Assembly (NCBI GenBank): GCA_003220595.1
Contig: QHSZ01000023.1
Location: 3,271-67,270, forward strand
Source: Candidatus Rokuibacteriota bacterium
GTDB taxonomy: Bacteria; Methylomirabilota; Methylomirabilia; Rokubacteriales; CSP1-6
DNA: 64,000 bases
Reading direction: 5' to 3'
Shown: positions 10,652 through 48,591 of the stretch, piece by piece
Numbering within the stretch: position 1 is the first letter of the stretch
How the letters are laid out: the number at the start of each line of letters is the position of its first letter
The notes under the pieces: generated by a model
What the model was told of the DNA's origin: nothing
The model's input: only the letters and a program-made list of their open reading frames with translations
Database searches by the model: none
Program-made: the position numbers and the translations under genes

Positions 10652-10829
10652 GGTGGCGTTCATACCGCTCGGTAGAAGCAAAAAGGGTGCCGGGGGGCCC
10701 GAAGCCTGGCACGGCGCCACTTTCCGGAAGTCCGGGCGGCGCATCCTGACACGGGCGCCGGCCGCGCCCGCCAGGGTGACACGGGCGGCCCCGACCCTGC
10801 ATGTCGCGCGTGCTAAGATTAGCTGCGGC

Positions 10830-11222
10830 ATGCCCATTTACGAGTACGAGTGCCACGACTGTCGACGCCGGGTGAGCCTCCTCGTACTCCGGCCGTCCAC
10901 CGCCCCCGCCGCCACCTGCCCGCGCTGTCACGGATCGAACCTGAGCCGCCTGATGTCGCGCTTCGCCACCGTCCGCTCGGAGGACGAGCGGCTCGAGTCC
11001 ATGGCAGACGCCTCGAGCTTCGGTGACCTCAACGAGGACGATCCGGCCAGCGTCGCCCGCTTCATGAAGAAGATGGGCAAGGAGTTCGGCGACGACCTCG
11101 GAGACGACTTCGAGTCCGCCGTGGACGAGGCCCTCACAGAGGGCGACACGGGGGGCCCGGCCGGCGCCACCGAGGGGCCGTCCGAATCCCTGGACGCCTC
11201 GGGCGCGCCCGAAGACCTCTGA
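10830..11222 (+). CDS. FmdB-family zinc-ribbon putative regulatory protein
   Basis: MPIYEYECHDC...CPRCHG is the classic FmdB CxxC...CxxC signature, followed by an acidic C-terminal tail. Confidence 0.75.
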   Translation: MPIYEYECHDCRRRVSLLVLRPSTAPAATCPRCHGSNLSRLMSRFATVRSEDERLESMADASSFGDLNEDDPASVARFMKKMGKEFGDDLGDDFESAVDEALTEGDTGGPAGATEGPSESLDASGAPEDL

Positions 11223-11232
11223 TGGCTTCCCG

Positions 11233-13478: not shown

Positions 13479-13569
13479 TTCGGGCCGTCCGCGCGCGCGC
13501 GTCGCGCCGACCTGACAGGTGTTGCGACTCGTCTTGCCATTGGACGTGTGCTAGACTCGCGCGCGGCGC

Positions 13570-28519: not shown

Positions 28520-32228
<3,709 letters not shown>

Positions 32229-32232
<4 letters not shown>

Positions 32233-33525: not shown

Positions 33526-33983
33526 GGCTCGAGCTCGCGGCGGATCCGGTCCCGCATCGCCGTGTCCACGGGCGTGGCCGCGACTCGTCCGGCGGCGGCC
33601 CCGCGGCGCGTCCAGCGCACGAGGACGAGGCCCACCAGCGTGAAGCCCACGGCGACGGCGACCGCGGGCATCGCCCACACGAGCAGGTTGAACCCGTGAC
33701 GGCGCGGCGAGAGCAGGATCCACTCGCCGTAGCGCTCCACGAAGTACTGGACCACCTGCGCCGGCGCCTCGCCCGCCTCGAGGCGCTCGCGAACGATCGC
33801 GCGCATCTGGCTCGCCATCTCGGAGGGCGAGTCGGCCACCGAGAGGTTCTGGCAGACGACGCAGCGGAGCTGCGCCGCCACGTCCTGCACCTGCTGCTCC
33901 GCGACCCGCCGCGCCTGCGCCGCGGCCCCGGCGGCGAGGACCAGGGCGAGCGCGAGCCCGAGGAGCGGCGCCCGGGCTCTCAT
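33522..33983 (-). CDS. ccmH: cytochrome c-type biogenesis protein CcmH/CycL
   Basis: Signal peptide plus the LRCVVCQN (LRCxxCQ) motif, followed by a C-terminal TM helix. Confidence 0.8.
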   Translation of the reverse strand: MRARAPLLGLALALVLAAGAAAQARRVAEQQVQDVAAQLRCVVCQNLSVADSPSEMASQMRAIVRERLEAGEAPAQVVQYFVERYGEWILLSPRRHGFNLLVWAMPAVAVAVGFTLVGLVLVRWTRRGAAAGRVAATPVDTAMRDRIRRELEP

Positions 33984-34516
33984 CCTGTCGTCTCCGACAG
34001 GAGCTTCTCGACGTTCAGGCGAAAGGCCTCATCGGTGACGGCGCCCACGTGCTTGGCGCGGATCCGGCCCCGGCGGTCGATGAAGAACGTCTCCGGCACG
34101 CCGTAGACGCCGTAGTCCACGGAGACCTTCCCGGTCGTGTCCCGCGCGTTGGGGAAGCTCAGGCCGAAGTCGCGCGTGAACTTCTGCGCCGCCTCCAGCT
34201 TGTCCTGGATGTCCACGCCGATCACGACGACGCCCCGGTCGCGGTAGGCGCGCCAGTTCCGCTCGAGCACGGGCGCCTCCTCGTAGCACGCGGGATAGCA
34301 CCAGGACGCCCAGAAGTTGAGGACGACGACCTTGCCGCGCTGGGCCTCGAGCGCGAGCGGGGCGCCCTCGAGCGTCTGGAGCGCGAAGGCGCTCGCCGGC
34401 CGCCCGACGAGCGGCGAGGGGATGTCACGCGGGTTCACGCGGAAGCCGTACGCGAGCAGGGCCAGGACGGGCACCGCCGAGAGCGGGATGAGCCAGCGCA
34501 GGAGCCGCGGGGTCAC
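33980..34516 (-). CDS. ccmG: thiol:disulfide interchange protein DsbE/CcmG (TlpA-like thioredoxin)
   Basis: N-terminal TM helix and a WASWCYPAC active site. GTGA overlap with ccmF. Confidence 0.8.
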   Translation of the reverse strand: MTPRLLRWLIPLSAVPVLALLAYGFRVNPRDIPSPLVGRPASAFALQTLEGAPLALEAQRGKVVVLNFWASWCYPACYEEAPVLERNWRAYRDRGVVVIGVDIQDKLEAAQKFTRDFGLSFPNARDTTGKVSVDYGVYGVPETFFIDRRGRIRAKHVGAVTDEAFRLNVEKLLSETTG

Positions 34517-36456
34517 GCGGGCTTCTTCCGATCTGGAAGGATCGCGAGCAGGGCGCCCAGGGTGAGCACGGCGCCGCCGATCCAGATCCAGCTGACGAGA
34601 CGGTTGACCTGGAGCTTCACCGTGGCCTCCGAGCCGTCCCGGGCGAAGTCGCCGAGGACCAGGTAGACGTCCTCGCCGAAGCCGAGACGGTAGTCCACGC
34701 CGGCGATCGGTGACTGTTCCTGAGGGTAGAACTTCTTCGCGGGGCGGAGCACGGAGAGCACGCGCCCGTTCGAGACGGTGAACGCGCCCGCGACCTTGAA
34801 GTGATTCGACTCCTCGGTGGCCGTGAGCCCGTCGAAACGCACGCGGTACCCGGCGAGCTCGGCCGCCTCGCCGCGGCGGAGCGTCGTCTCGGTCTGCACC
34901 GACCACGCCTGCGAGCCGGTCACGCCCAGCGTGACGATCAGGATGCCGAGGTGGACGACGAAGCCGCCGTACCGCCGGTTGTGGCGGCGCAGGAGGCCGC
35001 CCATCGCGGGCAGGAGCCGCTCACCCATCCGGAGGCGCGCGCGCGTCGCGCGGGAGAAGTCCACCGCGATCGTGGCGGCGACGAAGACGGTGAGCGCCAG
35101 GGCTAGCACGGCGAGCGTCGAGCGGATGCCGAGGGCGGAGAAGAGCGCGGCCGCCGCGACGCCCACCGCGACGGGCCAGAGGAAGCTCCGCCGCAGGTTG
35201 TCGGGCGAGGCGCGTCGCCAGGCGATGAGCGGCCCCACGCCCATCAGGAAGATGAGCGCGAGGAAGAGCGGCACGTTGACCTGGTTGAAGAAGGGCGCGC
35301 CGACCGAGACCTTCACGCCGCGTACGGCCTCCGAGAGGAGCGGGAACACGGTGCCGAAGAAGACGGTGAAGGCCGCCGCGATGAGCAGGACGTTGTTCAG
35401 GAGAAACGCCGACTCGCGCGAGACGACCGAGTCGAGCTCGCCCTGGGCAGAGAGCGCGTCCCAGCGCCACGCCAGGAGGGCGAGCGCCGTGAGCAGCACG
35501 AGCGCGAGGAAGCTCAGGAAGAAGACGCCGATCGAGCCCTGGGTGAAGGCGTGGACCGAGGCGATCACGCCCGAGCGCGTCAGGAACGTGCCGAAGAGGG
35601 TGAGGCCGAAGGTGAGGATCACGAGCCAGAGGTTCCAGAGTTTCAGCATCCGCCGGCGCTCCTGGACCATCACCGAGTGCAGGAACGCGGTGGCCGTGAG
35701 CCACGGCATGAACGCCGCGTTCTCCACGGGGTCCCAGGCCCAGTACCCCCCCCAGCCGAGGACGTGGTAGCTCCACCAGCCGCCGATGAGCAGCCCGAGC
35801 GAGAGGAAGTACCACGCGATGATCGTCCAGCGCCGGGTCAGCGTGATCCACGCGTCGCCGACGCGTCCGGTGATCAGCGCGGCCAGCGCGAAGGCGAAGG
35901 GCACCGTCACGCCCGTGAAGCCGAGGTAGAGGGCCACCGGGTGCGTGATCATGCCCGTGTCCTCGAGCAGCGGGTTGAGGCCGCGGCCGTCGGCGGGCAC
36001 CGGGGTGAGGCGCGCGAAGGGCGGCGCCGCCACCGTGATGACGAGCAGGAAGAAGGCCATGACCGACAGCATCACGGTGAGGACCCACGGGTAGAGCTCG
36101 TGCGCGCTCTCGCGGTGGCGGAGGATCACGATGAGCGTGTAGAGCGCGAGCATCCAGGTCCACAGAATGATCGAGCCCTCGAGCGCCCCCCACACGCCCG
36201 TGATCCGATAGTAGAACGGCGTGCCGAGGTTCGTGTTGATGGCGACGTAGCGCACCGAGAAGTCGAAGATGAGGAAGGCGTACGTGAGGAGCGCGAAGCA
36301 GGCCGTCACCAGCACGAAAACGCCGAGCGCCGCGTGCTGGGCCGAGAGGACGAGCGCCGGGCGACCCGTGCGCGCACCCGTGGCCGCGGCCACGGCGCCC
36401 CAGAGCGCCAGGGCGAGAGCGACGATGGCCGCCGCGCTGCCGAGCTCGGGGATCAC
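34513..36456 (-). CDS. ccmF: cytochrome c-type biogenesis heme lyase CcmF
   Basis: 647 aa polytopic membrane protein with WWSYHVLGWGGYWAWDPVEN (WWD domain) and conserved His residues. GTG start preceded by a GGGGAAGGG ribosome-binding site; overlaps ccmE. Confidence 0.85.
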   Translation of the reverse strand: MIPELGSAAAIVALALALWGAVAAATGARTGRPALVLSAQHAALGVFVLVTACFALLTYAFLIFDFSVRYVAINTNLGTPFYYRITGVWGALEGSIILWTWMLALYTLIVILRHRESAHELYPWVLTVMLSVMAFFLLVITVAAPPFARLTPVPADGRGLNPLLEDTGMITHPVALYLGFTGVTVPFAFALAALITGRVGDAWITLTRRWTIIAWYFLSLGLLIGGWWSYHVLGWGGYWAWDPVENAAFMPWLTATAFLHSVMVQERRRMLKLWNLWLVILTFGLTLFGTFLTRSGVIASVHAFTQGSIGVFFLSFLALVLLTALALLAWRWDALSAQGELDSVVSRESAFLLNNVLLIAAAFTVFFGTVFPLLSEAVRGVKVSVGAPFFNQVNVPLFLALIFLMGVGPLIAWRRASPDNLRRSFLWPVAVGVAAAALFSALGIRSTLAVLALALTVFVAATIAVDFSRATRARLRMGERLLPAMGGLLRRHNRRYGGFVVHLGILIVTLGVTGSQAWSVQTETTLRRGEAAELAGYRVRFDGLTATEESNHFKVAGAFTVSNGRVLSVLRPAKKFYPQEQSPIAGVDYRLGFGEDVYLVLGDFARDGSEATVKLQVNRLVSWIWIGGAVLTLGALLAILPDRKKPA

Positions 36457-36890
36457 TGTCGCCCTTCCCCCTGGAGAGTTCGGATCAGATCCTTGCCGAG
36501 CGTGGTCCCGCCGTCGTGAGGCGCCTTGTACTCCTCGGAATGCTTGGCGAGGATGAGACTCGCCTTGAAGTAGCCGTCGGCCGTCCAGCTGCCCTCGACG
36601 ACCGCGCCGCGGCTCTCGCCGAAGAGGTCGGGAGGCGTGCCCTTGTGTCGCACAGGCACGGTCGCCTTGCCGTCGGAGAGCGCGAAGGACAGGTCGAGCG
36701 AGCGCGGCTCCCACCTGAGCGAGCCCGGCTGGACCAGTCCGCCGAGGCGGTAGGCCTTGCCGACGACCGGCGCCGCGCGGAGCTCGCTCGGCGTGACGAA
36801 GTACACCGCCGACTGGGTCACGCCCGCGTAGATCATGTACGCGAGCGCCGCGGCGATCACCGCACCGCCGGCGACGAACTTGCCTTTCAT
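36453..36890 (-). CDS. ccmE: cytochrome c-type biogenesis heme chaperone CcmE
   Basis: 145 aa with an N-terminal TM helix and an OB-fold. The C-terminal LAKHSEEY contains the conserved heme-binding His (HxxxY). Confidence 0.8.
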   Translation of the reverse strand: MKGKFVAGGAVIAAALAYMIYAGVTQSAVYFVTPSELRAAPVVGKAYRLGGLVQPGSLRWEPRSLDLSFALSDGKATVPVRHKGTPPDLFGESRGAVVEGSWTADGYFKASLILAKHSEEYKAPHDGGTTLGKDLIRTLQGEGRQ

Positions 36891-36936
36891 CGGCCCGAGC
36901 CGCGGCGCGACCCGGCTGCGTTCCGCATGGCGCGAT

Positions 36937-37059
36937 TCATTCCAATCGCGTCGGCGCGCTCATTTGCTTTTCGAGCCGGATGAGGCGCCGCCAGTAGCCG
37001 AAGAGCACCAGCGCGGCGAGCGCGTAGGCGGCGAGAACGAAGCCCCAGTTGTCGGGCAT
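36937..37059 (-). CDS. ccmD: heme exporter protein CcmD (~40 aa)
   Basis: MPDNWGFVLAAYALAALVLFGYWRRLIRLEKQM... is a single-TM peptide. Its ATG shares a nucleotide with the ccmC stop (TGATG). It is not in the ORF track because of its size. Confidence 0.6.
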   Translation of the reverse strand: MPDNWGFVLAAYALAALVLFGYWRRLIRLEKQMSAPTRLE

Positions 37060-37706
37060 CACGCCGCGGCCTCCGCCTCGAGTTGGAGCAGGCGCACGCG
37101 CTTCGCGAGGAAGTAGAGGTAGAGGAGCGAGAACGCCGCGAAGTTCACCAGGAGCGCCGCGACGATCACGCCAGGCATGCTACTCCCTCCCGGCCTCATG
37201 AGCGACGGCGGCTGGTGCAGCGTCCGCCACCAGTAGACCGAGAAGTGCACGAGCGGGATGTTGAGCGCCGCGACGACGCCGAGCACGGCGGCGTAGCGGG
37301 CGGCGCGGTCGCCTTCGTCGATCATACCGCGGAGCAGGAGATAGCCGAGGTACATGACGAAGAGGATCGAGACGCTCGTGAGGCGCGCGTCCCACGTCCA
37401 CCAGGCGCCCCAGGTGGGCTTCCCCCAGATCGACCCGGTCGCGATCGTGAGGCCCGTGAAGAGGACGCCGAGCTCGGCGGAGGCGTGGGCGACGTGGTCG
37501 GCGCGCTCGGCGCGGCGGGCCAGATAGACGATGGACGCCACGAACACGACCGCGAAGGCGACGTAGGCGACCCAGACGCTGGGCACGTGGAGGTACATGA
37601 TGCGCTGGACGTTGCCCTGCGTCGCCTCGCGCGGGGCGACGCCGAAGGCCATCACGAGGCCCGCGCCGAGCCCGATCGCCGCGAGCCATCCGAGCGCCCT
37701 CGTCAT
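37059..37706 (-). CDS. ccmC: heme exporter protein CcmC
   Basis: 215 aa, 6 TM segments, with WGxPTWGAWWTWDARLTS (tryptophan-rich WWD motif). Start at the internal VMTRALGWLAA. Confidence 0.85.
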   Translation of the reverse strand: MTRALGWLAAIGLGAGLVMAFGVAPREATQGNVQRIMYLHVPSVWVAYVAFAVVFVASIVYLARRAERADHVAHASAELGVLFTGLTIATGSIWGKPTWGAWWTWDARLTSVSILFVMYLGYLLLRGMIDEGDRAARYAAVLGVVAALNIPLVHFSVYWWRTLHQPPSLMRPGGSSMPGVIVAALLVNFAAFSLLYLYFLAKRVRLLQLEAEAAA

Positions 37707-38353
37707 GACTCGAGCAGGAAGTCGAAGGTGAGCACGCCCGCGGCGACGTACACGACGTCGGCCGCGGCGAGGAGCTTCAGCCAGTGCGCGACCGCCGAGA
37801 GGGGCTCGCCCAGCAGCACGGCCTCGGTCGCCTTCACGGTCGCGAGGAGGACCGGCACCTGGACGGGGAGCAGCAGCACCGGGAAGAGCAGCTCGCGCGC
37901 GCGTACCTGGGCGGTCATCGCCGCGAAGAGCGTGCCAACGGCGGCGAGGCCGAGCGTGCCGAGCGCCACGACCAGCGCGAGCGCCGGCAGGGCGCCCGCG
38001 AGGTCCACGTTGAAGAAGAAGGTGAACAGGACGAGCAGCAAGGTCTCGACGACGAGCATCAAGAGGACGTTTCCCGCGAGCTTGCCGACGTAGATGGCCG
38101 ACTTGTCGCCGGGCGCCAGGAGCAGCGCGTCCCAGCAGTCGTTCTCGCGCTCGAGCACGAAGGTGCGCCCGAGTCCGAGCAGGCCGGCCAGGACGAAGCC
38201 CAGCCAGAGGATGCCGGGGAGCGCCGCGGCGAGCCGCTCGCGGTCGGGGCCGAGCGTGAACTGGAAGACGAACAGGAGCAGGAGCGAGAAGAAGACGAGC
38301 GCGTTGAGCGTCTCCTTCGAGCGGCGCTCCACGAGGAGATCCTTGCGGACCAC
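37703..38353 (-). CDS. ccmB: heme exporter protein CcmB
   Basis: ...RKDLLVERRSKETLNALVFFSLLLLFVF... followed by 6 TM segments. The start codon is uncertain (a GTG near 38353 was chosen). Confidence 0.75.
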   Translation of the reverse strand: MVRKDLLVERRSKETLNALVFFSLLLLFVFQFTLGPDRERLAAALPGILWLGFVLAGLLGLGRTFVLERENDCWDALLLAPGDKSAIYVGKLAGNVLLMLVVETLLLVLFTFFFNVDLAGALPALALVVALGTLGLAAVGTLFAAMTAQVRARELLFPVLLLPVQVPVLLATVKATEAVLLGEPLSAVAHWLKLLAAADVVYVAAGVLTFDFLLES

Positions 38354-38376
38354 GGCCCACGCGCGCCGCGCGAAGA

Positions 38377-39096
38377 TCAGGCGCCGTCCTCCGTGTGCAG
38401 CCGGTACAGGCGTGCGATCTCCTCGGCGCCCATCGAGGCGCGAGGCGTGTCGAGCGCGATCGTGCGCGCGGCGAGGATCACGATGCGGTCGGCGAGGGCG
38501 AGCTCGCGGCCGAAGCTGTGCGTGGCCATCACGAGCGCGCCGCCCGCCGCTTTGAACGCCTCGAGGTACCCCTCGAGCCACTTCTTCGCGCGCTGGTCGA
38601 GCCCCGCGAAGGGCTCGTCGAGCAGCAGGACGCGCGGGCGGGACAGCACGAACCGCGCCAGCGAGAGTCGGCGCTTCATGCCGGCGGAGAACGTGCGCAC
38701 GCGCTCGCCCGCGAACCGCTCGAGCTCGACGGCCGCGAGGGCCCGCGCGAGCACGGCGCCGTCGGCGGCGAGGCCCGAGAGCGCGGTCCAGAATCGAAGA
38801 TTCTCGAGCGCGGTGAGGTCCTCGTAGACGTACGCGCCGTGGGCGACCAGGCCGATGTGCGGCCGCACGCGCTCGGGCGCCCGGGCGCAGTCGTGGCCGA
38901 GGACGAAGGCGGTGCCGCGCGAGGGGCGCGTGAGCGTCGCCAGGATCCGCAGGAGCGTCGTCTTGCCCGCACCGTTCGCGCCGAGGAGCGCGACGGCCTC
39001 GCCGGCGCGGACCTCCAGGCGCACGTCGGCCAGCACGACGTGGCCGGCGAACGCCTTGCGGAGGCCGGTCACACGAATGAGCGGATCAGCAGCCAT
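38377..39096 (-). CDS. ccmA: heme ABC exporter ATP-binding protein CcmA
   Basis: 239 aa with Walker A GANGAGKTT, signature FSAGMKRRL and Walker B LLLDEP. Confidence 0.85.
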   Translation of the reverse strand: MAADPLIRVTGLRKAFAGHVVLADVRLEVRAGEAVALLGANGAGKTTLLRILATLTRPSRGTAFVLGHDCARAPERVRPHIGLVAHGAYVYEDLTALENLRFWTALSGLAADGAVLARALAAVELERFAGERVRTFSAGMKRRLSLARFVLSRPRVLLLDEPFAGLDQRAKKWLEGYLEAFKAAGGALVMATHSFGRELALADRIVILAARTIALDTPRASMGAEEIARLYRLHTEDGA

Positions 39097-39135: not shown

Positions 39136-39987
39136 TCAAGGAAGCGGTGCGGCGTCGCGGCGGCGCCCCCGCCCGTCGGTCCCCGGCCGCCTCTGCGGTT
39201 CAGGGTCGTGCGTGGAGAAGAACCGATGCAGCAGCAGGAGCACCGCCAGCATGTCCACCGCGCCGCCGCCGCCCCACATGACGACGCCACCCAGCGCCTG
39301 ATCCTCGAGCGGGGCGAGACCGCCGGGCCCGGGGGGCGCCGCATAGGAGGCGTAGAGGACGACCGGGCTCGCCGCGATCGAGAGCCCGAGGGCCGCGCTC
39401 TGGAGGGCGCCCGTGACGAGATAGACGACGCGCAGGCCGGGATGGACGGCTCGGCCGAAACGGGGCGCCGGACCGATCACGGGCCACCAGAACAGGATGG
39501 CGCCCGCGAAGAACGCCAGGTGCTCGAGGTCGTGGGCGACCCGATGGCCGAGCGCCCACTCGTACGCCCACGGGACGTGCCACAGCCACAGGACCCCCGC
39601 GTACGCACACCACGCGACGGGCATGCGCGTCAGGGCACGCCAGACGCTCCGCACGGGCGCGCCGCGCACGAGGAGCCGGCCGACCCGAATGCGGGCCCAC
39701 GTGGGCAGGGCCCAGAGGAGCGCCGCGAGCGGGTCGGCCAGGAGGAGGGCGGGCGCCGCGACGGCGATGAGGAGCATGTGCTGCGCCATGTGGGCGACGA
39801 AGCGGCGGTGCGCGAGGGCGTCGAGGGGGGAGAGCAGCGCCAGGGCGAGGCTCCCGAGGCCGGCCAGGGTGAGGGCGGGTCGCCACCACGCCACCCGCGG
39901 CCAGGCGCGCCGTGAAAGGCGCCACCACCCGGCTGCGTAGGCGACTCCCAGGAGCAGGAGCAGGACGAAGATTCCCGGCCGGTGCAT
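39136..39987 (-). CDS. cytochrome oxidase assembly factor, Caa3_CtaG/CopD-like membrane protein
   Basis: 283 aa polytopic protein with HMAQHMLLIAVAAPALLL and DQALGGVVMWGGGG motifs characteristic of CtaG (COG3336). Confidence 0.55.
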   Translation of the reverse strand: MHRPGIFVLLLLLGVAYAAGWWRLSRRAWPRVAWWRPALTLAGLGSLALALLSPLDALAHRRFVAHMAQHMLLIAVAAPALLLADPLAALLWALPTWARIRVGRLLVRGAPVRSVWRALTRMPVAWCAYAGVLWLWHVPWAYEWALGHRVAHDLEHLAFFAGAILFWWPVIGPAPRFGRAVHPGLRVVYLVTGALQSAALGLSIAASPVVLYASYAAPPGPGGLAPLEDQALGGVVMWGGGGAVDMLAVLLLLHRFFSTHDPEPQRRPGTDGRGRRRDAAPLP

Positions 39988-40067: not shown

Positions 40068-40172
40068 CTACAGCAGCGCGATCAGCCCCGAGAGGGCGTT
40101 GAAGAAGATCTCGAACACCAGGATCGCCAGATTGAGGATCACCAGGGGGATCAGGAGACGCTCGGCGCTCAT
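40068..40172 (-). CDS. very small membrane peptide (~34 aa), hypothetical
   Basis: MSAERLLIPLVILNLAILVFEIFFNALSGLIALL is a single TM helix. It lies 10 nt downstream of the previous gene with an AGGACGAG ribosome-binding site. Below the ORF-track size cutoff. Confidence 0.35.
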   Translation of the reverse strand: MSAERLLIPLVILNLAILVFEIFFNALSGLIALL

Positions 40173-40181
40173 GGGCTCGTC

Positions 40182-40376
40182 CTACTGACCCACCGCCAGG
40201 CCGGGCCCGAGACCGCCCCAGTACGTGAAGAGGTAGTAGATGCCCCAGACGGCGAGCACGGCGTAGACCACGAGCAGCCACTTGTTCACGATGCCGTGAT
40301 ACGCGCGGATCTCCCCGCGGGCGTATTCCTCGACGGCACCGTACCGCGGATGCTCCTCAGGTGCGCGCTCGGTCAT
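40182..40376 (-). CDS. small single-TM membrane protein (possible cbb3 oxidase accessory subunit)
   Basis: 64 aa. ...KWLLVVYAVLAVWGIYYLFTYWGG is a TM helix. It lies in the cco operon between ccoS and ctaG. Confidence 0.45.
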   Translation of the reverse strand: MTERAPEEHPRYGAVEEYARGEIRAYHGIVNKWLLVVYAVLAVWGIYYLFTYWGGLGPGLAVGQ

Positions 40377-40591
40377 GATCGCGGGGTCCGCGAGCCCGGC
40401 TCGTCCGTGGGTGGCCTGCGAGAGGAACCCGGGGCTTCGTCGCTCTCCTCCTCCACTTGGAGCACCCGGTACTTGATCGTCTCGACGTCACGGAACGCCC
40501 CGCTCACCGCGCCCCAGACGAAGGCGCTGAGGGCGGCGAGGCCCATGAGCACGGCGACGGCGAACGCGCCCAGGGTCAGGTGCTCGAGCAT
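40373..40591 (-). CDS. ccoS: cbb3-type cytochrome oxidase maturation protein CcoS/FixS-like
   Basis: MLEHLTLGAFAVAVLMGLAALSAFVWGAVSGAFRDVETIKYRVLQ matches the CcoS pattern (TM helix - FxW..SGxFxD - RVL). The start is placed at the internal ATG. Confidence 0.55.
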   Translation of the reverse strand: MLEHLTLGAFAVAVLMGLAALSAFVWGAVSGAFRDVETIKYRVLQVEEESDEAPGSSRRPPTDEPGSRTPRS

Positions 40592-40604
40592 CGCGGGGGC
40601 CTCC

Positions 40605-42260
40605 TCACTCCCGGACTCCGGGGTAGTAGACGCGCGGCTTCTTGCCATTGACCCGGGCCACGCCGGCCGCCTCGCGCTCCGGGTCGAGGGCCAGCCGCGG
40701 ATGGTCGGCGCGGACGTCCGGCGAATCGAGCGCCGCCTTGGTCTGCGGGGAGAGCTTGAGCTTCTCGCCCGTCAGCGGATCGGCCCAGGCCGAGAACGAG
40801 AGCACGAAGTACGAGATGGCCCAGCGCTCCGCGTCGTTCATCGAGTCGGCGAATGAGGGCATGGGGGTCCCGTCGAGTCCGAGCGTCATCGTACGATAGA
40901 TGTCGGCCACGTGGGAGCCGCCCTTGAACTGGCCCTTCGTGAAGTCCGCGGGACGGATCGGGAGCTTGAGGTCGTCCTTGAGCTGATTGGCCGAAGGCCC
41001 GTCGCCCTTGCCGGTATCGCCGTGGCACTCCCAGCACTTGGCCTTCACGTAGAGGTCCTTTCCCCGGGCGAGGAGTGCGGGCGTGGCCGCCGGCGGCGGC
41101 GGCAGCACGAGCGGCGGCTCCGGCTTCTCCTCCTTCCAGCGCGTGGAGAAGGTCTTGATGTACGAGATGAGCGCGAGCCGTGTCTTGTCGGGGAGCTCAT
41201 GCCACGTCGGCATCGCCGTCCAGCGGACGCCGCGCGTGACCGTGCGGAAGAGGTCGCCGTCGGTCGGCAGAGACCCGGACGGCGTCGAGCGGAACTTGAA
41301 GGCGCCGATCGTGAAGTCGCGCGGCCGGGGGAAGAGGAAGGTGGCGGCGAGCCCGTTGCCGTCGCCCTTCGGCCCGTGGCAGCCGATGCAGTGCTCTGCG
41401 TATTCCTCCTTGCCACGGGCGACCAGGTCGGCGCTCGGCGGAATGCCCATCACGGACAGCGCCACGTTCTGCGGCTCGAAGACCTCCCGCCACGCCCCGC
41501 GATTCGTCCCGAGCTTCTGGACGTAGCCGACGAGCGAGACCAGCTCCTTCGTCGGGACCACCAACAGGACGGAGGTGAGGGCGGGCGGCGTGTCGGCGAA
41601 GGGCGTCAGGTCGAGGACGGGCGTGCCGTCGATCGGGAGCTCGCCGTCGGGGCGCGGGCGTACGAACGTGAGCCCCGTCTCGTTGGGGAAGAGGAGCACC
41701 GGCCTGTCCTTGTTCAGCGTGAAGTATCGCGAGAGAGCCGGTGTCGCCTCGAGCGCGAGCCCCTCGCCGCCCTTGCGCACGGGGACCCGGGCCTGCTCGA
41801 AGAGCCACTTGAAGCTCGGCATGATGGACTCGGGCACCACCAGCCGCGGATCCCAGTGGTGGGCGTAGTGCCAGTCGTCGGCGTACTTGAGCCCCACGCG
41901 CGTCAGGTCCGGTCCGATGCGCCGGGTGGAGAAGAGGTGCGGGAGGTCGTAGGCATACTCGCCGGCCTCGGAGACGGGACCCCAGCGCAGCTCCTCGCTG
42001 GCGACCGGCCGCACGTACTGGCTGTGGCAGTACCAGCACCCCTCGCGGATGTACACCGCGCGCCCGAGCTGCTCCCGCGGCGTGTAGTCGCTCGACTCGT
42101 ACCGCACCCACTTGACCTCGCCGAGGTCCGTTCGCACGGCGCGGCTCACGTGCTTCGCGCGCGACTCGGGCAGCATGGCGGGGAGAAAGCCTTGCACGAA
42201 GAGCGCGAGCGTCACGAAGAAGAACCCGGCCCCGATCGCCAGCGACTTGATCGATCTCAT
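40605..42260 (-). CDS. ccoOP: cbb3-type cytochrome c oxidase CcoO-CcoP fusion (monoheme subunit II fused to diheme subunit III)
   Basis: 551 aa. N-terminal TM helix plus EGCWYCHSQYVRP, the CcoO heme motif. The C-terminal half has two further CxxCH sites (CIGCHGPKGDG and CWECHGDTGKGDG) with a CcoP-like cyt c fold. Confidence 0.75.
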   Translation of the reverse strand: MRSIKSLAIGAGFFFVTLALFVQGFLPAMLPESRAKHVSRAVRTDLGEVKWVRYESSDYTPREQLGRAVYIREGCWYCHSQYVRPVASEELRWGPVSEAGEYAYDLPHLFSTRRIGPDLTRVGLKYADDWHYAHHWDPRLVVPESIMPSFKWLFEQARVPVRKGGEGLALEATPALSRYFTLNKDRPVLLFPNETGLTFVRPRPDGELPIDGTPVLDLTPFADTPPALTSVLLVVPTKELVSLVGYVQKLGTNRGAWREVFEPQNVALSVMGIPPSADLVARGKEEYAEHCIGCHGPKGDGNGLAATFLFPRPRDFTIGAFKFRSTPSGSLPTDGDLFRTVTRGVRWTAMPTWHELPDKTRLALISYIKTFSTRWKEEKPEPPLVLPPPPAATPALLARGKDLYVKAKCWECHGDTGKGDGPSANQLKDDLKLPIRPADFTKGQFKGGSHVADIYRTMTLGLDGTPMPSFADSMNDAERWAISYFVLSFSAWADPLTGEKLKLSPQTKAALDSPDVRADHPRLALDPEREAAGVARVNGKKPRVYYPGVRE

Positions 42261-43715: not shown

Positions 43716-44555
43716 TCATGAGAAGCGGATCGGATGCACGGCCTCGAATCGCTGCCCGCGGTTGTTTGCGAGGACCACCCGCAACAGGTCCTCTCCCGGC
43801 GCGCGGAGCCTGAACGCGATCCAGGGATTATCGCTGAGCGCCGAGGTCAGCGTGAAGCGGCTGATCGGCTGGTCTCCGTAGAAGACGTCCATCTGGCTCA
43901 GGTAGAGGGGGTCCCCCGCCTGGACGAACTTCCCCTCCCGGACCTCCAGGCCCGTTCGGCTCGGATGCTTGGTCTTGATCTGGATGTCGATCGTCTGGTG
44001 AGGGCCGATGCTGCCTTCGGCGATCAGCTGCGGTATCCGGATCGTGGGCGGACCGATCTCGTCGGGGCCCGTCCTGCCTGGCGGCGGCGCGGTCCCCGCA
44101 CAGCCACCGCCGCCCTCCGGGATCGTGATGGACCGCGTGCTGTGCCAGCGAACGTGGCGGCTGCACTCGGCCGTCGCCACGACGTCGGAGGCGCCACGAT
44201 CGAGGCGGATCTGGAAGGCGAGATAGACCTGGCCGTTCAGCGGCGTGAAGTGGAAGACGCCCTTCAGGGGAACGGGATCGCGCTCGTTCATGACGCTGAC
44301 GCTGCTCACGTAGTGACCGGGTTCCATCGGATGGGACATCTCGACGGTGACCGGGACCTTGGCTCCGTTGCTCGTGAAGACGGGCAGCGTGAGCGCGAGC
44401 GCATCGGGATCGTCGCCGGGTGAGCGCGTCGGCTCGCCGCGCCCCCAGGCGCCGCGAGGTCCTCCCGCCGCGATCAGCCCCACGGCCGCCGGCAGCGCGC
44501 CCAGGAAGCTCCGCCTGGACACGAGCCGCGGCCGTGAGGCGACGTGCGGTGTCAT
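43716..44555 (-). CDS. soxYZ: Tat-exported SoxY-SoxZ fusion (thiosulfate-oxidation carrier protein)
   Basis: Twin-arginine signal SRRSFLGALPAAVGLIAAG. The SoxY-like domain (...AKVPVTVEMSHPMEPGHYVSSVSVMNERDPVPLKGVFHFTP...) ends in the carrier-Cys motif GGGGC. A Pro/Gly linker follows, then a SoxZ-like Ig fold (...TIDIQIKTKHPSRTGLE...SQMDVFYGDQPISRFTLT...). Confidence 0.6.
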   Translation of the reverse strand: MTPHVASRPRLVSRRSFLGALPAAVGLIAAGGPRGAWGRGEPTRSPGDDPDALALTLPVFTSNGAKVPVTVEMSHPMEPGHYVSSVSVMNERDPVPLKGVFHFTPLNGQVYLAFQIRLDRGASDVVATAECSRHVRWHSTRSITIPEGGGGCAGTAPPPGRTGPDEIGPPTIRIPQLIAEGSIGPHQTIDIQIKTKHPSRTGLEVREGKFVQAGDPLYLSQMDVFYGDQPISRFTLTSALSDNPWIAFRLRAPGEDLLRVVLANNRGQRFEAVHPIRFS

Positions 44556-44577
44556 GGCCGACCGGGACGCCGCCGTC

Positions 44578-45039
44578 TCAGTGTCGGCCGGGATCGAGCT
44601 TGGACCCTCGGTTCGACCAGTAGATGTAGGCCTCCAGCGCCTTCATCGCGTCCCCGTCGGGGTCGATCTTCACCCCCTCGTTCGGCTTCTCGATGCACCA
44701 GTTGATCATGTCGCGCAGCGTCGCGAACTTGTTGATCTGCTCCTGGAACTTCGGGAACTCGTAGGGATGGTTGTCCGAGGCGAACGGATGGCACATGGCG
44801 CACGCCATCCCCGTCTTGGACAGCGTGACGCCGAGCCGCTTCTCGGTGGCGCCGTCCCCGTGGAAGAGCAGATCTCCGACCTTCACCTGCTCCATGAACA
44901 CGTCGTCGAAAGCCTTGAGCTGGTCAGGCGTGTGTTTCTCCTTGTGGGCCAGCGCCCGGTCCGTGCCCGAGGTCGCGAGCAGCAGAAGCAGGCCCAGGCC
45001 GACACCCAGCGCCGTCGACGCGTAGCGAGTCCTCTTCAT
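44578..45039 (-). CDS. periplasmic monoheme c-type cytochrome
   Basis: Signal peptide MKRTRYASTALGVGLGLLLLLATSG and a single CAMCH heme motif. A GGAGGAGGG ribosome-binding site lies upstream. Confidence 0.65.
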   Translation of the reverse strand: MKRTRYASTALGVGLGLLLLLATSGTDRALAHKEKHTPDQLKAFDDVFMEQVKVGDLLFHGDGATEKRLGVTLSKTGMACAMCHPFASDNHPYEFPKFQEQINKFATLRDMINWCIEKPNEGVKIDPDGDAMKALEAYIYWSNRGSKLDPGRH

Positions 45040-45077
45040 CGCCCTCCTCCCTCCCTGGGTGCGAGCCCCGCCGGTGC

Positions 45078-46193
45078 TCATTTGTAGGCGCCGTAGTACG
45101 GCCACTCGCGATCGGCGATGCGCGGTTGTAGCGTCTGGTTGATGTTGTCGGCGCACCCGGAGTCCCACGGCGCCTCCGCCAGGATGTCCTTCCGCCACAT
45201 CACGTACTCGTTCTCGAGCTTCTCGGCCGCGCTCACGGTGAGCCGGGACCAGCCGACGCCGTCGAAGTGGTCGCCGGGATCGACCCGCACCAGGCACCGG
45301 GTCAGCGCGGGCACGCCCTCGGGCGCGTAGGGCCACGTCCACGAGGTGGCCAGCATGCCGATCGAGCGCATCTTTCCGAGCTCGTTGTACAGCACCTGAT
45401 GCGTGTGACCGTGGACGTTGGTGACGTTGGTGTAGGCCTTGAGGACCTCGTGCACCTCGCGCCAGTCACGCACCCAGAAGTTCCAGGGCGGGTAGTACTC
45501 ATAGAGCGGGTTGTGGCTGAAGATGATCACGGGCTTGTCCTTGGGCCAGCTCCCGAGCGTGCGGTTCAGCCACTCGAGCTGATCACGGCCGACGCCGGCC
45601 CACGCCCCGGCCACCGAGCCGTCGAGCGTCGCCATGTGGCCCATCCGCTCCTTGGCCGTCATCTTCTTGGCGGTCCAGTAGTCGGGACCGCGGCTGACCG
45701 TGTCGAGGCCGACGAAGCGCACGCCCTTGTGGTCGAAGGTCCAGTTCGGTGCGCCGAAGAGCTGCCGCCACTTGGCGCCCATGTCGAAGTACCAGTCATG
45801 CTCTCCGGGGATGTACACCTTCTTGATCTTCAGCTCCTTGAGGATGTCGTTGCCGAGGCCCAGCTCGACCGGATCGCCGAGCTGGGCTAGATCACCCCCG
45901 TGGATCAGGAAGTCGGCCGGGGGCGACATGGCCTGCACGTCCTTGACCGCGCGGGTGGCCTTGTCGACGAACCGGGTGTTGACGTCCTTGGGATAGAGAT
46001 GGTTGTCGGAGATCCAGGCGAACTTGAACGCTTCGGCGCCGAACGCCACGTCGAGCGTGTTGATGAGGGGGAACCACCCGTACGTCGCCGCGCCCGCGGC
46101 CCCCGCGAGCACCGATTTGTGGAGGAAGATGCGGCGCGTGATACCGAGCGAGGGATCGGGCCGCTCGCCCGGTCGCCTCAGCTCCCGGTCCAT
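45078..46193 (-). CDS. Tat-exported calcineurin-like metallophosphoesterase
   Basis: Twin-arginine leader ITRRIFLHKSVLAGAAGAATYG. Metallophosphoesterase motifs GDLAQ / GEHD / FSHNP / HGHTHQ. Confidence 0.65.
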   Translation of the reverse strand: MDRELRRPGERPDPSLGITRRIFLHKSVLAGAAGAATYGWFPLINTLDVAFGAEAFKFAWISDNHLYPKDVNTRFVDKATRAVKDVQAMSPPADFLIHGGDLAQLGDPVELGLGNDILKELKIKKVYIPGEHDWYFDMGAKWRQLFGAPNWTFDHKGVRFVGLDTVSRGPDYWTAKKMTAKERMGHMATLDGSVAGAWAGVGRDQLEWLNRTLGSWPKDKPVIIFSHNPLYEYYPPWNFWVRDWREVHEVLKAYTNVTNVHGHTHQVLYNELGKMRSIGMLATSWTWPYAPEGVPALTRCLVRVDPGDHFDGVGWSRLTVSAAEKLENEYVMWRKDILAEAPWDSGCADNINQTLQPRIADREWPYYGAYK

Positions 46194-46352
46194 CTCGCGC
46201 CGCGTCGCTCGGATCTCGCCGGACGCGCGCGCCTTCCGCCACCAAGCCCTCCGAGACGTTTCTCTGGCGAGCTCGAGTCGATCATGGTCGTCCACTGCGG
46301 TCGCCTCCTTCCCACCGCCAGGCAGTCGTGCCGGACGGAAGCCAGTGTGGCC

Positions 46353-47096
46353 CTACTTCTTCAGCTCCACCGTAACGGGCACCACCTCCTTGGCGTTCAC
46401 GCTCACGGGAATCTCGACCTCGCCCGCGTACTCCTGCCACGTCACGAGCGTATAGGAGCCGGGCGGGACGTCCTTGATCGTGAACGTCCCGTCCTTCGCC
46501 GTCACCGCGTAGTAGGGGTTGTCCGCGACGTAGACCCAGCCGAGCATCCAGCCGTGGGCGTCGCACTCTACGCGGACGAGCCCCGGCTTCTTGAGCGGCC
46601 GCCTGATCCGCTGGTCCTGGTTCGGCAGGGCCACGTTGAACGCAGTGAGCTTGCCGTAGAAGCCGTGCGTGTTGTGGAGGACCGGATCCGAGTTGACGAT
46701 CTCGAAGTCGCCGGCCGGGATGATCTGCACGTGCGGTCGAAAGTCGCACTTGACGTTGTCGATGTGCGGGACGCCCGCAGCCTTCTCCCAACCCTTGCCC
46801 TTCTCGACGGATTTCAGATAGACGACCGCGTCCTCGACCGCCTTATCGGGGCCGACCAGGATCTGATCCACCTCGCGCACGCCGCTGCCGCACACCTCCC
46901 GATCCTTGGTCGGGATGACCTTTCGCTTGGGCGGCGCGCTCCCCTGGAAGACCACCTTGCCCTTGATGGTGCCGCCGCCGCTGACGTCCACGACCTCGTA
47001 CGGCAGTGCGGGAGTGGCCACGCCGATCACCAACGCCACGACCGCGAGCGCCACGAACGTGAGCAGCGCCGTCGCCATGCGGGTACGCGTCCTCAC
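46353..47096 (-). CDS. secreted cupredoxin-like (type-1 copper) domain protein
   Basis: Signal peptide. Candidate copper ligands are His in HNTHGF and the ECDAHGWM block (Cys-x2-His-x2-Met spacing, as in plastocyanin/amicyanin), followed by a C-terminal Ig-like beta-sandwich. Confidence 0.4.
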   Translation of the reverse strand: MRTRTRMATALLTFVALAVVALVIGVATPALPYEVVDVSGGGTIKGKVVFQGSAPPKRKVIPTKDREVCGSGVREVDQILVGPDKAVEDAVVYLKSVEKGKGWEKAAGVPHIDNVKCDFRPHVQIIPAGDFEIVNSDPVLHNTHGFYGKLTAFNVALPNQDQRIRRPLKKPGLVRVECDAHGWMLGWVYVADNPYYAVTAKDGTFTIKDVPPGSYTLVTWQEYAGEVEIPVSVNAKEVVPVTVELKK

Positions 47097-47127
47097 TCCG
47101 GCTCTCCTTTGTGGAGCGCGCCCGTGC

Positions 47128-47949
47128 TCAGAGATGGGCGGACGGGCGCGGCAATGGCTCGAGCTTCTCCTCGGGCGCGTGACACACGTGACAGGCCCGC
47201 TCTCCGATCTCCGAGACGAGCGTGTAGCCGGCGCCCTGGGACCGCCAGACGACCACGTCGTAGCCGCGGTGGCTCACCACCTTGAACCGCGGCTTCTCCC
47301 TCAGCTGGAGGCGGCGGTAGGCCTCCTCCGGGATGATGAAGAGCGAGACGTTGTTGCCGTCGAGCTGATACTCGAGCGCCGCCACCTCGATCTCTCCGAG
47401 GTGCGAGATCCGCCCTCCGAGGAAGCGCAGGCCCTCGGTCTTCAGATCCGGGAGACTCACGTTGAAGGTGAGCCGCTGCCTGAACCACTCCTCGGCCGCC
47501 TTCGGCGACACGTCCCTGATGTCGGGCGGCAGGAGGTTGCGGACCAGCTTCTGGTGCTGCTCCACCGCGGCCCCCGCGAGCTCGGGGAGCGTGATCCGGG
47601 TACCGAGGTACGCTTTCAGTGCCATCCCGGCGCCCAGACCAACGGCGACCAGAAGCGCGGCGGCGATCGCGAGAACGAGGGGCGTCAGCCGGCGCCGTCC
47701 GTGCCTTGCCCGCTGGCCATGGCCGAGGTCCCGGAGCAGCGTGGCCACGTGCTCGCGGACCCGCTCGGGGGCTGGGTCCGGGCGCAACCGCTCCCCGTAC
47801 GCTTCCCGGAACGCGACCTCGAAGTCGACGAGCCGTCGACAGGCGGTGCAGTGCGCCAGATGCGTGTCGACCTGGTCCCGCAGCTCCGGCGTCAGCTCCC
47901 CGTCGACGTAGGGAAACAGCTTGGATTTCGCCGTACTACAGTCCATCAC
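47128..47949 (-). CDS. anti-sigma factor (ZAS-type zinc-binding, membrane-spanning)
   Basis: N-terminal H-x3-C-x2-C (HLAHCTACRRL), a central TM helix, and a periplasmic C-terminal domain. It overlaps the 3' end of the ECF sigma gene. Confidence 0.65.
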   Translation of the reverse strand: MMDCSTAKSKLFPYVDGELTPELRDQVDTHLAHCTACRRLVDFEVAFREAYGERLRPDPAPERVREHVATLLRDLGHGQRARHGRRRLTPLVLAIAAALLVAVGLGAGMALKAYLGTRITLPELAGAAVEQHQKLVRNLLPPDIRDVSPKAAEEWFRQRLTFNVSLPDLKTEGLRFLGGRISHLGEIEVAALEYQLDGNNVSLFIIPEEAYRRLQLREKPRFKVVSHRGYDVVVWRSQGAGYTLVSEIGERACHVCHAPEEKLEPLPRPSAHL

Positions 47950-48517
47950 TTCTCACGCCCACGCCTTTCTCGCCGGGCCGCTGGGGGAGCTCCACGAGAT
48001 ACGTTCGAAGCAAGTTCCTGCCACGGTAGAGCCGAGACATGACGGTGCCGATCGGACGGCTCACGATGGCCGCGATCTCGCGGTACGCCAGCCCCTCGAT
48101 GTCGCGAAGCTCGACCACTTCCCGGAGGAGCGGGGGCAGGCGGCGGATCGCCTCACGGACCTGCTCGACGGTCTCGCGCCGAACCAGGATGTCCTCCGGG
48201 GCGAGCGGGATTGAACAGAGGGGACTTTCCATGGAGACCACTGGCTCCACTTCCTCGTCGCGCCCCAGAGGCTCTTCCGAGGGCCGCACCCGCTGCCGTC
48301 GCTGACGGTCGATCTGAGCATTCCTGATGATCGTGAAGATCCACGGCTTAAAGCTCTGGGCCCGGTCGAACGTGTGGAAGCCGTCGTAGGCGCGCACGAG
48401 GCTTTCCTGGAGGAGGTCTTCGGCGGCCTCGACCTGACGCGTCAGCACGAGGGCGTAGTTGTACAGGGAATCGAGATACTTTCGGACAAGATCCTGAAAC
48501 TCGGACCCCCTGTCCAC
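47936..48517 (-). CDS. ECF-type RNA polymerase sigma factor (sigma-70 family, group 4)
   Basis: 193 aa with region 2 (LVLTRQVEAAEDLLQESLVRAY...FKPWIFTIIRNAQIDRQR) and region 4 (LREVVELRDIEGLAYREIAAIV...GTVMSRLYRGRNLL). Confidence 0.85.
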   Translation of the reverse strand: MDRGSEFQDLVRKYLDSLYNYALVLTRQVEAAEDLLQESLVRAYDGFHTFDRAQSFKPWIFTIIRNAQIDRQRRQRVRPSEEPLGRDEEVEPVVSMESPLCSIPLAPEDILVRRETVEQVREAIRRLPPLLREVVELRDIEGLAYREIAAIVSRPIGTVMSRLYRGRNLLRTYLVELPQRPGEKGVGVRSDGL

Positions 48518-48591
48518 AGATCTCCCCGGTCCTGCTTTCGTATGACTTACTACGTACTACGTACGGGAGGCCGACTTATTCCCTGGGGGGC

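Follow-up and report, generated by a model that had tools for sequence, protein, structure and literature searches.

Contig QHSZ01000023.1 of a Candidatus Rokuibacteriota bacterium encodes, within the 64,000 nt stretch that we analysed (hereafter the window), a conserved set of four exported proteins: a SoxY–SoxZ fusion protein, a monohaem cytochrome c of the SoxA/TsdA type, a metallophosphoesterase (MPE) with a twin-arginine translocation (Tat) signal, and a type-1 cupredoxin. Their genes lie between those of an extracytoplasmic function (ECF) sigma factor paired with an anti-sigma factor and those of a cbb3-type terminal oxidase. Three of the four proteins have a counterpart in the Sox system of sulfur oxidation, namely the fusion, the cytochrome and the hydrolase, the last of these as a member of the SoxB superfamily. 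We propose, with confidence that is evenly balanced for and against, that the proteins form a Sox-type module for the oxidation of carrier-bound sulfur in the periplasm, wired to a dedicated terminal oxidase. The locus was first singled out by a prediction made without database searches (the original prediction), and we revisited it with profile searches, structure models and a survey of related loci.

Results

Synteny and distribution of the module

We identified 28 related loci, 26 of them by scanning a single genome for each species and two more through look-ups with the MPE; the counts given below are of loci with enough sequence. The loci come from at least six phyla (the organisms, as named, were Rokubacteria/Methylomirabilota, Myxococcales/Anaeromyxobacteraceae, Entotheonella/Tectomicrobia, Binatia, Eisenbacteria and 'Deltaproteobacteria' metagenome-assembled genomes, MAGs) and share a gene order. 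The cytochrome gene was found directly upstream of the fusion gene in every locus (26/26), an MPE gene was present near the fusion gene in 23 of 24 loci and a cupredoxin gene in 22 of 23, CcoN was encoded downstream of the fusion in 18/24, and an ECF sigma factor was encoded nearby in 14/20. Chance adjacency of the module genes was rejected on the basis of these synteny counts. The nearest relatives of the window proteins belong to soil Rokubacteria/Methylomirabilota. Metagenomes from soil and groundwater contain the gene set in abundance, and the MPE is represented by more than 2,000 clusters at 90 % identity.

Our literature search found nothing on this gene cluster. The combination of a metal-ligand SoxY–SoxZ fusion, a mini SoxA/TsdA cytochrome, an MPE with a GEHD motif, a cupredoxin, an oxidase and an anti-sigma factor with a haem motif is undescribed in the literature that we found. 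The suggestion in the original prediction of a possibly undescribed module holds for this combination, but not for the fusion itself, which belongs to a known type of protein.

A SoxY–SoxZ fusion with an internal carrier cysteine

The proposal that a single polypeptide joins SoxY to SoxZ, with the carrier cysteine placed internally, was borne out by profile searches. Residues 48–152 of the fusion scored 70.7 bits against the SoxY model PF13501 (cut-off 28.4), and residues 187–272 scored 45.2 bits against the SoxZ model PF08770 (cut-off 25). An AlphaFold2 (AF2) model reached a predicted local distance difference test (pLDDT) score of 84 overall and of >90 within both domains, and the predicted folds matched solved SoxY and SoxZ structures. 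The cysteine lies in the sequence GGGGC152AGTAPPP, which leads into a Pro-rich linker, so placed that 127 residues follow C152 (GGC152 corresponds to nt 44100–44108). G150, G151 and C152 were invariant among 75 fusion homologues, and GGC152 aligned with the C-terminal GGCGG arm of Paracoccus SoxY. An identical fusion protein is encoded on four independent metagenome contigs. Judged from its sequence, the fusion may carry a sulfur intermediate on Cys152.

The proteins of the cluster missed all of the NCBIfam Sox equivalog cut-offs. The fusion scored 43.6 bits against the SoxY equivalog TIGR04488 (SoxY_true_GGCGG; cut-off 125) and does not end in an extreme C-terminal GGCGG. Its best NCBIfam match was TIGR04557, at 89.4 bits under a cut-off of 140, which leaves it outside that family. 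Fusion of SoxY to SoxZ is as such already known, from the TIGR04557 class and from published clades, in which SoxYZ fusions (SoxYZ-S2/S4) are linked to pyrroloquinoline quinone-dependent alcohol dehydrogenase (PQQ-ADH) and xoxF genes (PMC11237559). Neither the window nor those related loci that we inspected gene by gene contained a PQQ dehydrogenase.

A single-domain cytochrome of the SoxA/TsdA type

The original prediction listed soxA as missing, which proved misleading, as the monohaem cytochrome is itself of the SoxA/TsdA type. It scored 36.1 bits against PF21342 (SoxA-TsdA_cyt-c; cut-off 27) and, in single-sequence and profile searches alike, matched only SoxA (1h31, 2c1d) and TsdA in the PDB. 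The haem-binding motif CAMCH occupies residues 80–84 (nt 44788–44802), and a candidate axial ligand, Cys115 of the motif MINWCIE (nt 44695–44697), aligned with the haem-ligand cysteine of SoxA and TsdA. C80, C83, H84 and C115 were invariant in 21 homologues. The PF21342 match, the CXXCH motif and the cysteine at the axial position together place the protein in the SoxA/TsdA domain family. The aligned cysteine in A. vinosum TsdA is the active-site haem ligand Cys96. At the equivalog level, the cytochrome scored 29.6 bits against the SoxA model TIGR04484 (cut-off 110), and it consists of a lone 153 amino acid domain without the dihaem architecture of TsdA. The sulfur interpretation is strengthened in one respect because the cytochrome is SoxA-like.

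The metallophosphoesterase and the cupredoxin

The MPE retains a full set of dinuclear-metal ligands, in the motifs SD97xH99, GD135, G(E)HD, H261 and GH297xH299. Residues D97, H99, D135, E165, H166, H261, H297 and H299 were invariant, including in a Ralstonia homologue of 30 % identity. The motif GNHD reads GEHD in all of the homologues, that of Ralstonia among them, with Asn replaced by Glu165 (nt 45801–45803, minus strand), a change that may alter the metal preference or redox behaviour of the protein. Identity between MPE sequences was 70–87 % across phyla, and 67–68 % to rhizobial homologues. At a mean pLDDT of 56 the AF2 model was poor, a probable cause being an alignment made up solely of sequences of >74 % identity. 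The length of 371 amino acids given in the original prediction is too short, since the longest frame spans 405 amino acids and its start is conserved in the aligned Rokubacteria homologues.

A conserved N-terminal extension of ~30 residues precedes the twin-arginine motif of the MPE. Within the first ~55 residues (~46130–46295, minus strand), a stretch of the form E-L-x-R-x-R-R-E-M...P-G-x-R-P-D-x-S-L lies before the twin-arginine motif and is kept in rhizobia. AF2 placed two helices in the N-terminal stretch at low confidence, and a Tat proofreading chaperone could dock there.

On the Ralstonia solanacearum megaplasmid (locus L033, 6364–9292), the 30 %-identical Tat-exported MPE is paired with a 125 amino acid CuA-type cupredoxin (CxxxCxxxHxxM) that is annotated as 'cytochrome c oxidase subunit II', and an ECF sigma/anti-sigma pair is encoded divergently from these two. 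This MPE–cupredoxin pair was found in ~137 Ralstonia megaplasmid records. A distant MPE homologue of Burkholderia pseudomallei adjoins chromate-resistance genes and another, of Caballeronia, lies in an unannotated record; both contexts are uninformative on function.

The 247 amino acid protein originally described as cupredoxin-like was established as a true type-1 cupredoxin by profile search and by its invariant copper ligands. It comprises an N-terminal beta region, the type-1 cupredoxin domain and, according to Pfam, a CarboxypepD_reg-like domain. A profile of 19 homologues matched the blue-copper protein 5fc9 (E 2e-4) and amicyanins with the copper ligands aligned, and H141, C178, H181 and M184 were invariant in all 19. 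In one myxobacterial locus, a second cupredoxin/CarboxypepD_reg paralogue of 40 % identity is encoded on the opposite strand beside the module (L014, 4239–4808, minus strand).

Superoxide reductase-type residues in the SoxY half

The SoxY half of the fusion carries ligand residues of the superoxide reductase (SOR) type, H75, H81, C131 and H134. Among the 75 sequences, H75 and C131 were invariant and H81 and H134 nearly so. The family profile matched solved SORs with E-values of 6e-5 to 0.03 and aligned with them at all of the iron-ligand motifs: KHVP with xKH-P, HPxxxEH with HPxxxxH, and CNxHGxW with CxxHGxW. The window protein marginally passed the Desulfoferrodox model PF01880 (24.5 bits against a cut-off of 22.2), gave no match to NCBIfam TIGR00332, and its relatives fell under the cut-off of the latter. 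The window protein is without the first SOR histidine, owing to a 9 amino acid deletion that is identical on four contigs. This histidine (in an 'ERLH-P' motif), and hence the full set of five ligands, is present in ~90 % of the relatives and missing from ~10 %. In alignment, the SOR-type ligand residues were absent from canonical SoxY proteins, and also from the SoxY of the equivalent rhizobial cluster described below. The residues may bind a metal. A 'TAT-SOR' class exists in the database SORGOdb (PMC3116461).

Sulfur-related context of relatives

We surveyed gene neighbourhoods for a sulfur-related context, which was found for the rhizobial clusters, for unfused relatives of the carrier and for two loci with a rhodanese gene, but not for most of the MAG loci. 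The rhodanese gene lies directly 3' of the fusion gene in L012 and L014, both myxobacterial. In rhizobia, a trio of cupredoxin, MPE and cytochrome is encoded on megaplasmids of Sinorhizobium meliloti, S. fredii and Phyllobacterium, with identities to the window proteins of 60–61 % for the cytochrome and 54–55 % for the cupredoxin in addition to those given above for the MPE. The rhizobial trio is flanked by the same type of oxidase, an SCO protein and a P-type ATPase. Beside it stands an operon for a separate SoxY, a SoxZ, a cytochrome c and a flavoprotein resembling sulfide:quinone oxidoreductase or flavocytochrome c (SQR/FCC-like), which is listed as 'soxYZEF-like' in a comparative-genomics paper (PMC4053727).

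An exhaustive profile search revealed stand-alone Tat-exported SoxY proteins of ~155–161 amino acids that possess the full SOR-type ligands and end in GGC-COOH. In four independent contig sets, these unfused proteins were encoded together with SoxZ, a SoxB-like protein and a cytochrome c (L040, 993–5505; L042, 4297–9395; L045, 470–6992; L047, 191–5988). The SoxB-like proteins contain both Metallophos and 5_nucleotid_C domains and scored 476 and 424 bits against TIGR04486 (cut-off 550). A YncE-like beta-propeller and DUF302 were each found in three of the four contig sets, and a YeeE-type Sulf_transp protein, SCO, a cupredoxin and DsrE each in some of the contigs. These neighbourhoods therefore embed the metal-ligand SoxY clade in Sox-like sulfur clusters, and the partner hydrolase of the clade is always of the metallophosphoesterase superfamily. 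A literature search gave no description of the unfused clusters. Homologues of the unfused metal-ligand SoxY P0286 were from uncultured sequences only and gave no link to the named TAT-SOR genes of SORGOdb.

The adjacent terminal oxidase

The cbb3 oxidase placed downstream in the original prediction was confirmed: CcoN matched solved cbb3 oxidases (E 1e-47 to 1e-41) with the HH and HxH motifs aligned, and the next gene encodes a FixO domain. We rejected a nitric-oxide reductase as an alternative, given E 1e-6 for cytochrome c-dependent nitric-oxide reductase (cNOR) versus ~1e-47 for cbb3. The cbb3 genes missed the NCBIfam equivalog cut-offs, and we consider the oxidase a divergent cbb3 subtype for this reason. 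A Caa3_CtaG-type gene is conserved 3' of CcoOP in several loci. Small hydrophobic open reading frames (ORFs) of 34, 64 and ~70 amino acids lie 3' of CcoO/P and are probably CcoS/CcoQ-type oxidase components; small genes occupy the equivalent place in L036 and L037, one of them with a weak FixS match. One Rokubacteria locus (L006, 242–3222) has a second CcoN–CcoO/P pair, of 72–78 % identity, just 5' of the sigma gene, so this type of oxidase can be duplicated.

In Myxococcota loci without cbb3, the module stands beside an A-family oxidase, consisting of COX2, COX1, COX3 and a dihaem cytochrome (L012, 11188–14552; L029, 1295–5546; L014, ~9700–15400). The module is thus always beside a terminal oxidase, cbb3 in most loci and A-family in Myxococcota, and this swap indicates that the constant partner is a terminal oxidase and not one particular oxidase. 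In loci of the Binatia and Eisenbacteria type, a multihaem c554-like cytochrome is encoded between the fusion and CcoN (L030, 8822–9679; L023, 6390–7223).

Putative operon structure and regulation

Eight co-directional genes run along the minus strand from the sigma factor to CcoO/P, separated by intergenic gaps of 16–57 nt or joined by small overlaps (Table 1); the overlap between the sigma and anti-sigma genes is 14 nt. The genes and coordinates of the original prediction were confirmed, apart from its count of 'five co-directional genes', as its own list holds four. The G+C content of the window is ~70 %.

Table 1. Features of the module and adjoining genes (positions within the window)
Feature	Position	Strand	Basis
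ECF sigma factor, 193 aa	47936..48517	-	Sigma70_r2 and Sigma70_r4_2; TIGR02937 100 bits (cut-off 42.9)
Zinc-motif (ZAS) anti-sigma factor, 273 aa, membrane	47128..47949	-	zf-HC2 E 3e-11, 43.5 bits
Cupredoxin-containing secreted protein, 247 aa	46353..47096	-	Profile search and Pfam
MPE, Tat-exported, 405 aa	45078..46295	-	PF00149; Tat motif TRRIFLH
Monohaem cytochrome c, SoxA/TsdA type, Sec signal, 153 aa	44578..45039	-	PF21342; single CAMCH
SoxY–SoxZ fusion, Tat-exported, 279 aa	43716..44555	-	Tat motif SRRSFLG; SoxY and SoxZ domains
CcoN, cbb3-type oxidase subunit I, 463 aa	42277..43668	-	COX1 E 1e-71
CcoO–CcoP fusion, trihaem subunit, 551 aa	40605..42260	-	FixO and two cytochrome c domains
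Small hydrophobic ORFs (three), placed like CcoS/FixS and CcoQ	40068..40648	-	ORF list, position
Caa3_CtaG-type oxidase assembly membrane protein	39136..39987	-	PF09678 E 2e-55
Putative ECF-type promoter motif GGAATAA-N14-CGTAG, 5' of sigma gene	48557..48582	-	Position and conservation

The regulatory pair was assigned to the ECF sigma and ZAS anti-sigma families on the presence of sigma-70 regions 2 and 4 only, the zinc motif HxxxCxxC in the anti-sigma factor, and the overlap of the two genes. The motif GGAATAA-N14-CGTAG sits 40 nt 5' of the sigma gene and is the sole match in the window, where 0.02 would be expected by chance; it was found once per locus, 5' of the sigma gene, in nine related loci. 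Its position and conservation point to a promoter. No convincing terminator was found in the intergenic gaps between the module genes. Taken together, the conserved putative ECF promoter, the close packing of the genes and the absence of any convincing terminator between them suggest a single autoregulated operon that would extend into the oxidase genes.

The C-terminal domain of the anti-sigma factor ends in CHVCH (residues 253–257; nt 47179–47193, minus strand). A CXXCH motif was found at the same C-terminal position in 13 of 13 module-adjacent anti-sigma homologues, down to 28 % identity, and was not present in the Ralstonia anti-sigma factor. We read a single transmembrane segment and a periplasmic C-terminal domain from the sequence by eye. 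The conserved CXXCH, with a Ccm system encoded nearby, points to a sensor domain, presumably periplasmic, that would carry covalent haem c. The original prediction of envelope-stress-type regulation was unsupported; the anti-sigma factor resembles a periplasmic haem-c sensor. A literature search gave no description of an anti-sigma factor with covalent haem c, and such a protein would represent a sensor type for which we found no published account.

The Ccm system I genes (CcmA-like ABC ATPase, CcmC/CcmF-type and CcmH; 33522–39096, minus strand) lie directly 3' of the oxidase and CtaG genes, and the Ccm–oxidase region is thereby a centre of c-type cytochrome genes. At a distance of ~1 kb from the Ccm genes, a DtxR-family metal-dependent repressor is encoded that is fused to a FeoA domain (31429–32232, plus strand). 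The remaining genes of the window concern efflux, fatty acids, CoA-transferase, DNA ligase, ABC transport, Ccm and fatty-acid synthesis.

Discussion

We hypothesize that the module oxidizes carrier-bound sulfur. Our analysis established the domain identities, the conserved residues and gene order and the sulfur-related surroundings of relatives, whereas the substrate, each of the catalytic steps, the route of the electrons, the haem ligation, metal binding by the SOR-type residues and the single transcript are predictions. In the proposed scheme, the SoxA/TsdA-type cytochrome would oxidatively attach a sulfur anion to the fusion at Cys152; the likeliest substrate is thiosulfate, with sulfide or sulfane sulfur as alternatives. 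Two electrons would pass to the type-1 cupredoxin, or directly to the trihaem CcoO/P of the cbb3 oxidase, or by both routes, and from there to O2. The Tat-exported MPE would then release the terminal sulfonate as sulfate, the step that SoxB performs in canonical Sox. The leftover persulfide would be dealt with elsewhere, for which the rhodanese of some loci or the flavocytochrome of rhizobia could serve. The anti-sigma factor would free the sigma factor once a signal, redox or ligand, is perceived by its periplasmic haem-c domain.

Several observations weigh against this proposal. Within the cluster, NCBIfam identified no SoxX equivalog and, as originally predicted, SoxCD was not found; no other sulfur genes were found elsewhere in the 64 kb window, nor in most MAG loci. 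The His/Cys ligation of the cytochrome haem is a prediction drawn from alignment. The MPE gave no match to TIGR04486 and has no 5_nucleotid_C domain (PF02872), which places it outside SoxB; its closest relatives, all weak matches, were CpdA, SpdA, GpdQ and MPPED2, which are of the cyclic-nucleotide/glycerophosphodiesterase type. The original idea of a minimal SoxB analogue survives in the dinuclear ligands and the missing 5'-nucleotidase C domain, but the unmatched TIGR04486 and the GEHD motif are not SoxB-like, and the change of Asn to Glu165 is unusual for a plain hydrolase. At the Ralstonia locus, both SoxYZ and a SoxA-type cytochrome are absent; because the MPE and a CuA-type cupredoxin occur there without SoxYZ, the role of SoxB analogue is only one option, and the MPE–cupredoxin pair may serve a separate function, possibly in redox chemistry. 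The rhizobial SoxY was no nearer to the fusion than canonical SoxY (27 % versus 30 % identity). Finally, the SOR-type ligands of the fusion have no role in a Sox-like scheme.

These ligands lead us to a tentative and rather doubtful extension, in which the SoxY half is a metal-binding, redox-active carrier intermediate between SOR and SoxY, whose Fe or Cu centre would help to load or oxidize the sulfur bound to the arm. The operon would then represent an unrecognized, widespread soil pathway that ties the carrier module, a dinuclear enzyme other than SoxB and a blue-copper protein to a private oxidase and is switched on by a haem-c anti-sigma factor in response to the periplasmic signal. The ligands could also be taken as a sign of oxidative-stress defence, with the fusion acting as a Tat-exported SOR-type iron protein that is reduced by the cytochrome and the cupredoxin and detoxifies superoxide or other reactive species near the oxidase, under redox-sensing ECF/ZAS control. 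This would account for the alignment of the N-terminal domain with solved SORs at all iron-ligand motifs, the passing of the Desulfoferrodox cut-off and the conservation of H75, C131, H81 and H134 among the 75 sequences, and it would agree with the existence of a TAT-SOR class and with the ZAS and CXXCH motifs of the anti-sigma factor. We nonetheless think it unlikely. Superoxide reduction would leave the MPE, the SoxA/TsdA-type cytochrome, the SoxZ domain and the invariant GGC loop without a role, the first histidine is missing from the window protein and from ~10 % of its relatives, and the ligands are lost in the SoxY of the equivalent rhizobial cluster. Furthermore, the unfused relatives are found in clusters with SoxZ, SoxB-like and YeeE proteins and not in stress clusters.

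We considered two further explanations. The module proteins might assemble, metallate, protect or feed electrons to a class of haem-copper oxidases, with no sulfur substrate and with Cu or Fe carried by the His/Cys site and the Cys loop. The association of the module with two oxidase families, cbb3 and A-type, is consistent with such a function, as are the neighbouring assembly genes (SCO, Caa3_CtaG, a CcoI-like P-type ATPase, a DsbD_2/TauE-like protein and the Ccm system), the pairing of the Ralstonia MPE with a CuA-type cupredoxin, and the presence of a cupredoxin and SCO in unfused SoxY clusters as well. Yet the module is absent from most organisms that have cbb3 or aa3 oxidases and is therefore not a general assembly factor; its proteins are not homologous to the copper chaperones PCuAC, Sco and CopZ, and the SoxB-like, YeeE and rhodanese neighbours indicate sulfur. 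To our knowledge, SoxA/TsdA-type haem and SoxYZ are otherwise associated with sulfur chemistry only, and we regard the oxidase-accessory explanation as improbable. We judge it quite improbable, too, that the MPE and cupredoxin constitute the core of a redox enzyme, in which a dinuclear Fe/Mn centre tuned by the change of Asn to Glu would oxidize carrier-bound sulfur (in the manner of SoxCD) or another small reductant, with the cytochrome and fusion in secondary roles. The recurrence of an MPE with a cupredoxin-type carrier and an ECF sigma/anti-sigma pair in Ralstonia at 30 % identity speaks for this possibility, together with the invariant GEHD, the extreme conservation of the MPE across phyla and into rhizobia, and the conserved pre-Tat extension, which suggests chaperone-assisted cofactor loading. 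Against this, all of the catalytic-hydrolase motifs are retained, the general-acid His166 included, and we know of no MPE-fold oxidoreductase of such a kind.

If the module does oxidize sulfur compounds, then sulfur oxidation, whether lithotrophic or detoxifying, could be attributed to major uncultured phyla of the soil that lack canonical Sox, and the roles of SoxB and SoxAX would prove fillable by much smaller proteins. The presence of SOR-type ligands in a SoxY fold suggests an origin for the Sox carrier and raises the possibility of a redox-active carrier. As the core genes are located on megaplasmids of S. meliloti and S. fredii, these questions are directly testable by genetics.

Comparison with known systems

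The N-terminal half of the fusion resembles centre II of SOR/desulfoferrodoxin in its beta-sandwich fold, in the aligned histidine, HPxxxxH and CxxH motifs, and in a Tat signal like that of TAT-SOR. Unlike SOR, the window protein has the first histidine deleted, is extended by a Cys arm of the SoxY type and by a SoxZ domain, and lies in a Sox-like genomic context. The TIGR04557 fusions share the joining of SoxY to SoxZ and the internal GGC loop. More distant fusions of the PQQ type, assigned to that type by the KAAGGCSAP motif alone and not by NCBIfam or context, differ in being without SOR-type ligands, and the published PQQ-ADH/xoxF clades adjoin genes for alcohol, methanol or formate dehydrogenases rather than for an oxidase, an MPE or a SoxA-type cytochrome.

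The unfused SoxY, SoxZ and SoxB-like clusters are related to the module by the same SoxY subclade, with its SOR-type ligands and GGC arm, by the SoxZ partner, by a hydrolase of the metallophosphoesterase superfamily, and by a cupredoxin, SCO and cytochrome c encoded nearby. They differ in that SoxY and SoxZ are separate, the cysteine is the last residue and the hydrolase has the SoxB architecture; a YncE-like beta-propeller, DUF302 and a YeeE-type transporter are added, whereas the SoxA/TsdA-type cytochrome, adjacent oxidase and ECF pair are missing. TsdA shares the cytochrome domain family and the cysteine that aligns with its active-site haem ligand, but is dihaem and works without a carrier protein, while the module cytochrome is a single haem domain always encoded beside a SoxYZ-type carrier.

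Compared with canonical Sox of Paracoccus and other bacteria, the module carrier is one polypeptide with an internal cysteine and with SOR-type ligands kept in its SoxY half, the cytochrome is a single 153 amino acid domain with no SoxX, SoxCD is missing, and the hydrolase, a CpdA/GpdQ-like MPE of one domain, has a GEHD motif and lacks the 5'-nucleotidase domain. The operon also includes a cupredoxin and a dedicated oxidase, and it has an ECF sigma/anti-sigma pair in place of the ArsR-type SoxR. What the two systems have in common is a carrier of SoxY and SoxZ fold whose arm bears Gly-Gly-Cys, a cytochrome domain of the SoxA type that conserves a cysteine, a periplasmic dinuclear metallophosphoesterase, Tat export of both carrier and hydrolase, and the delivery of electrons, predicted in the case of the module, to c-type cytochromes and an oxidase.

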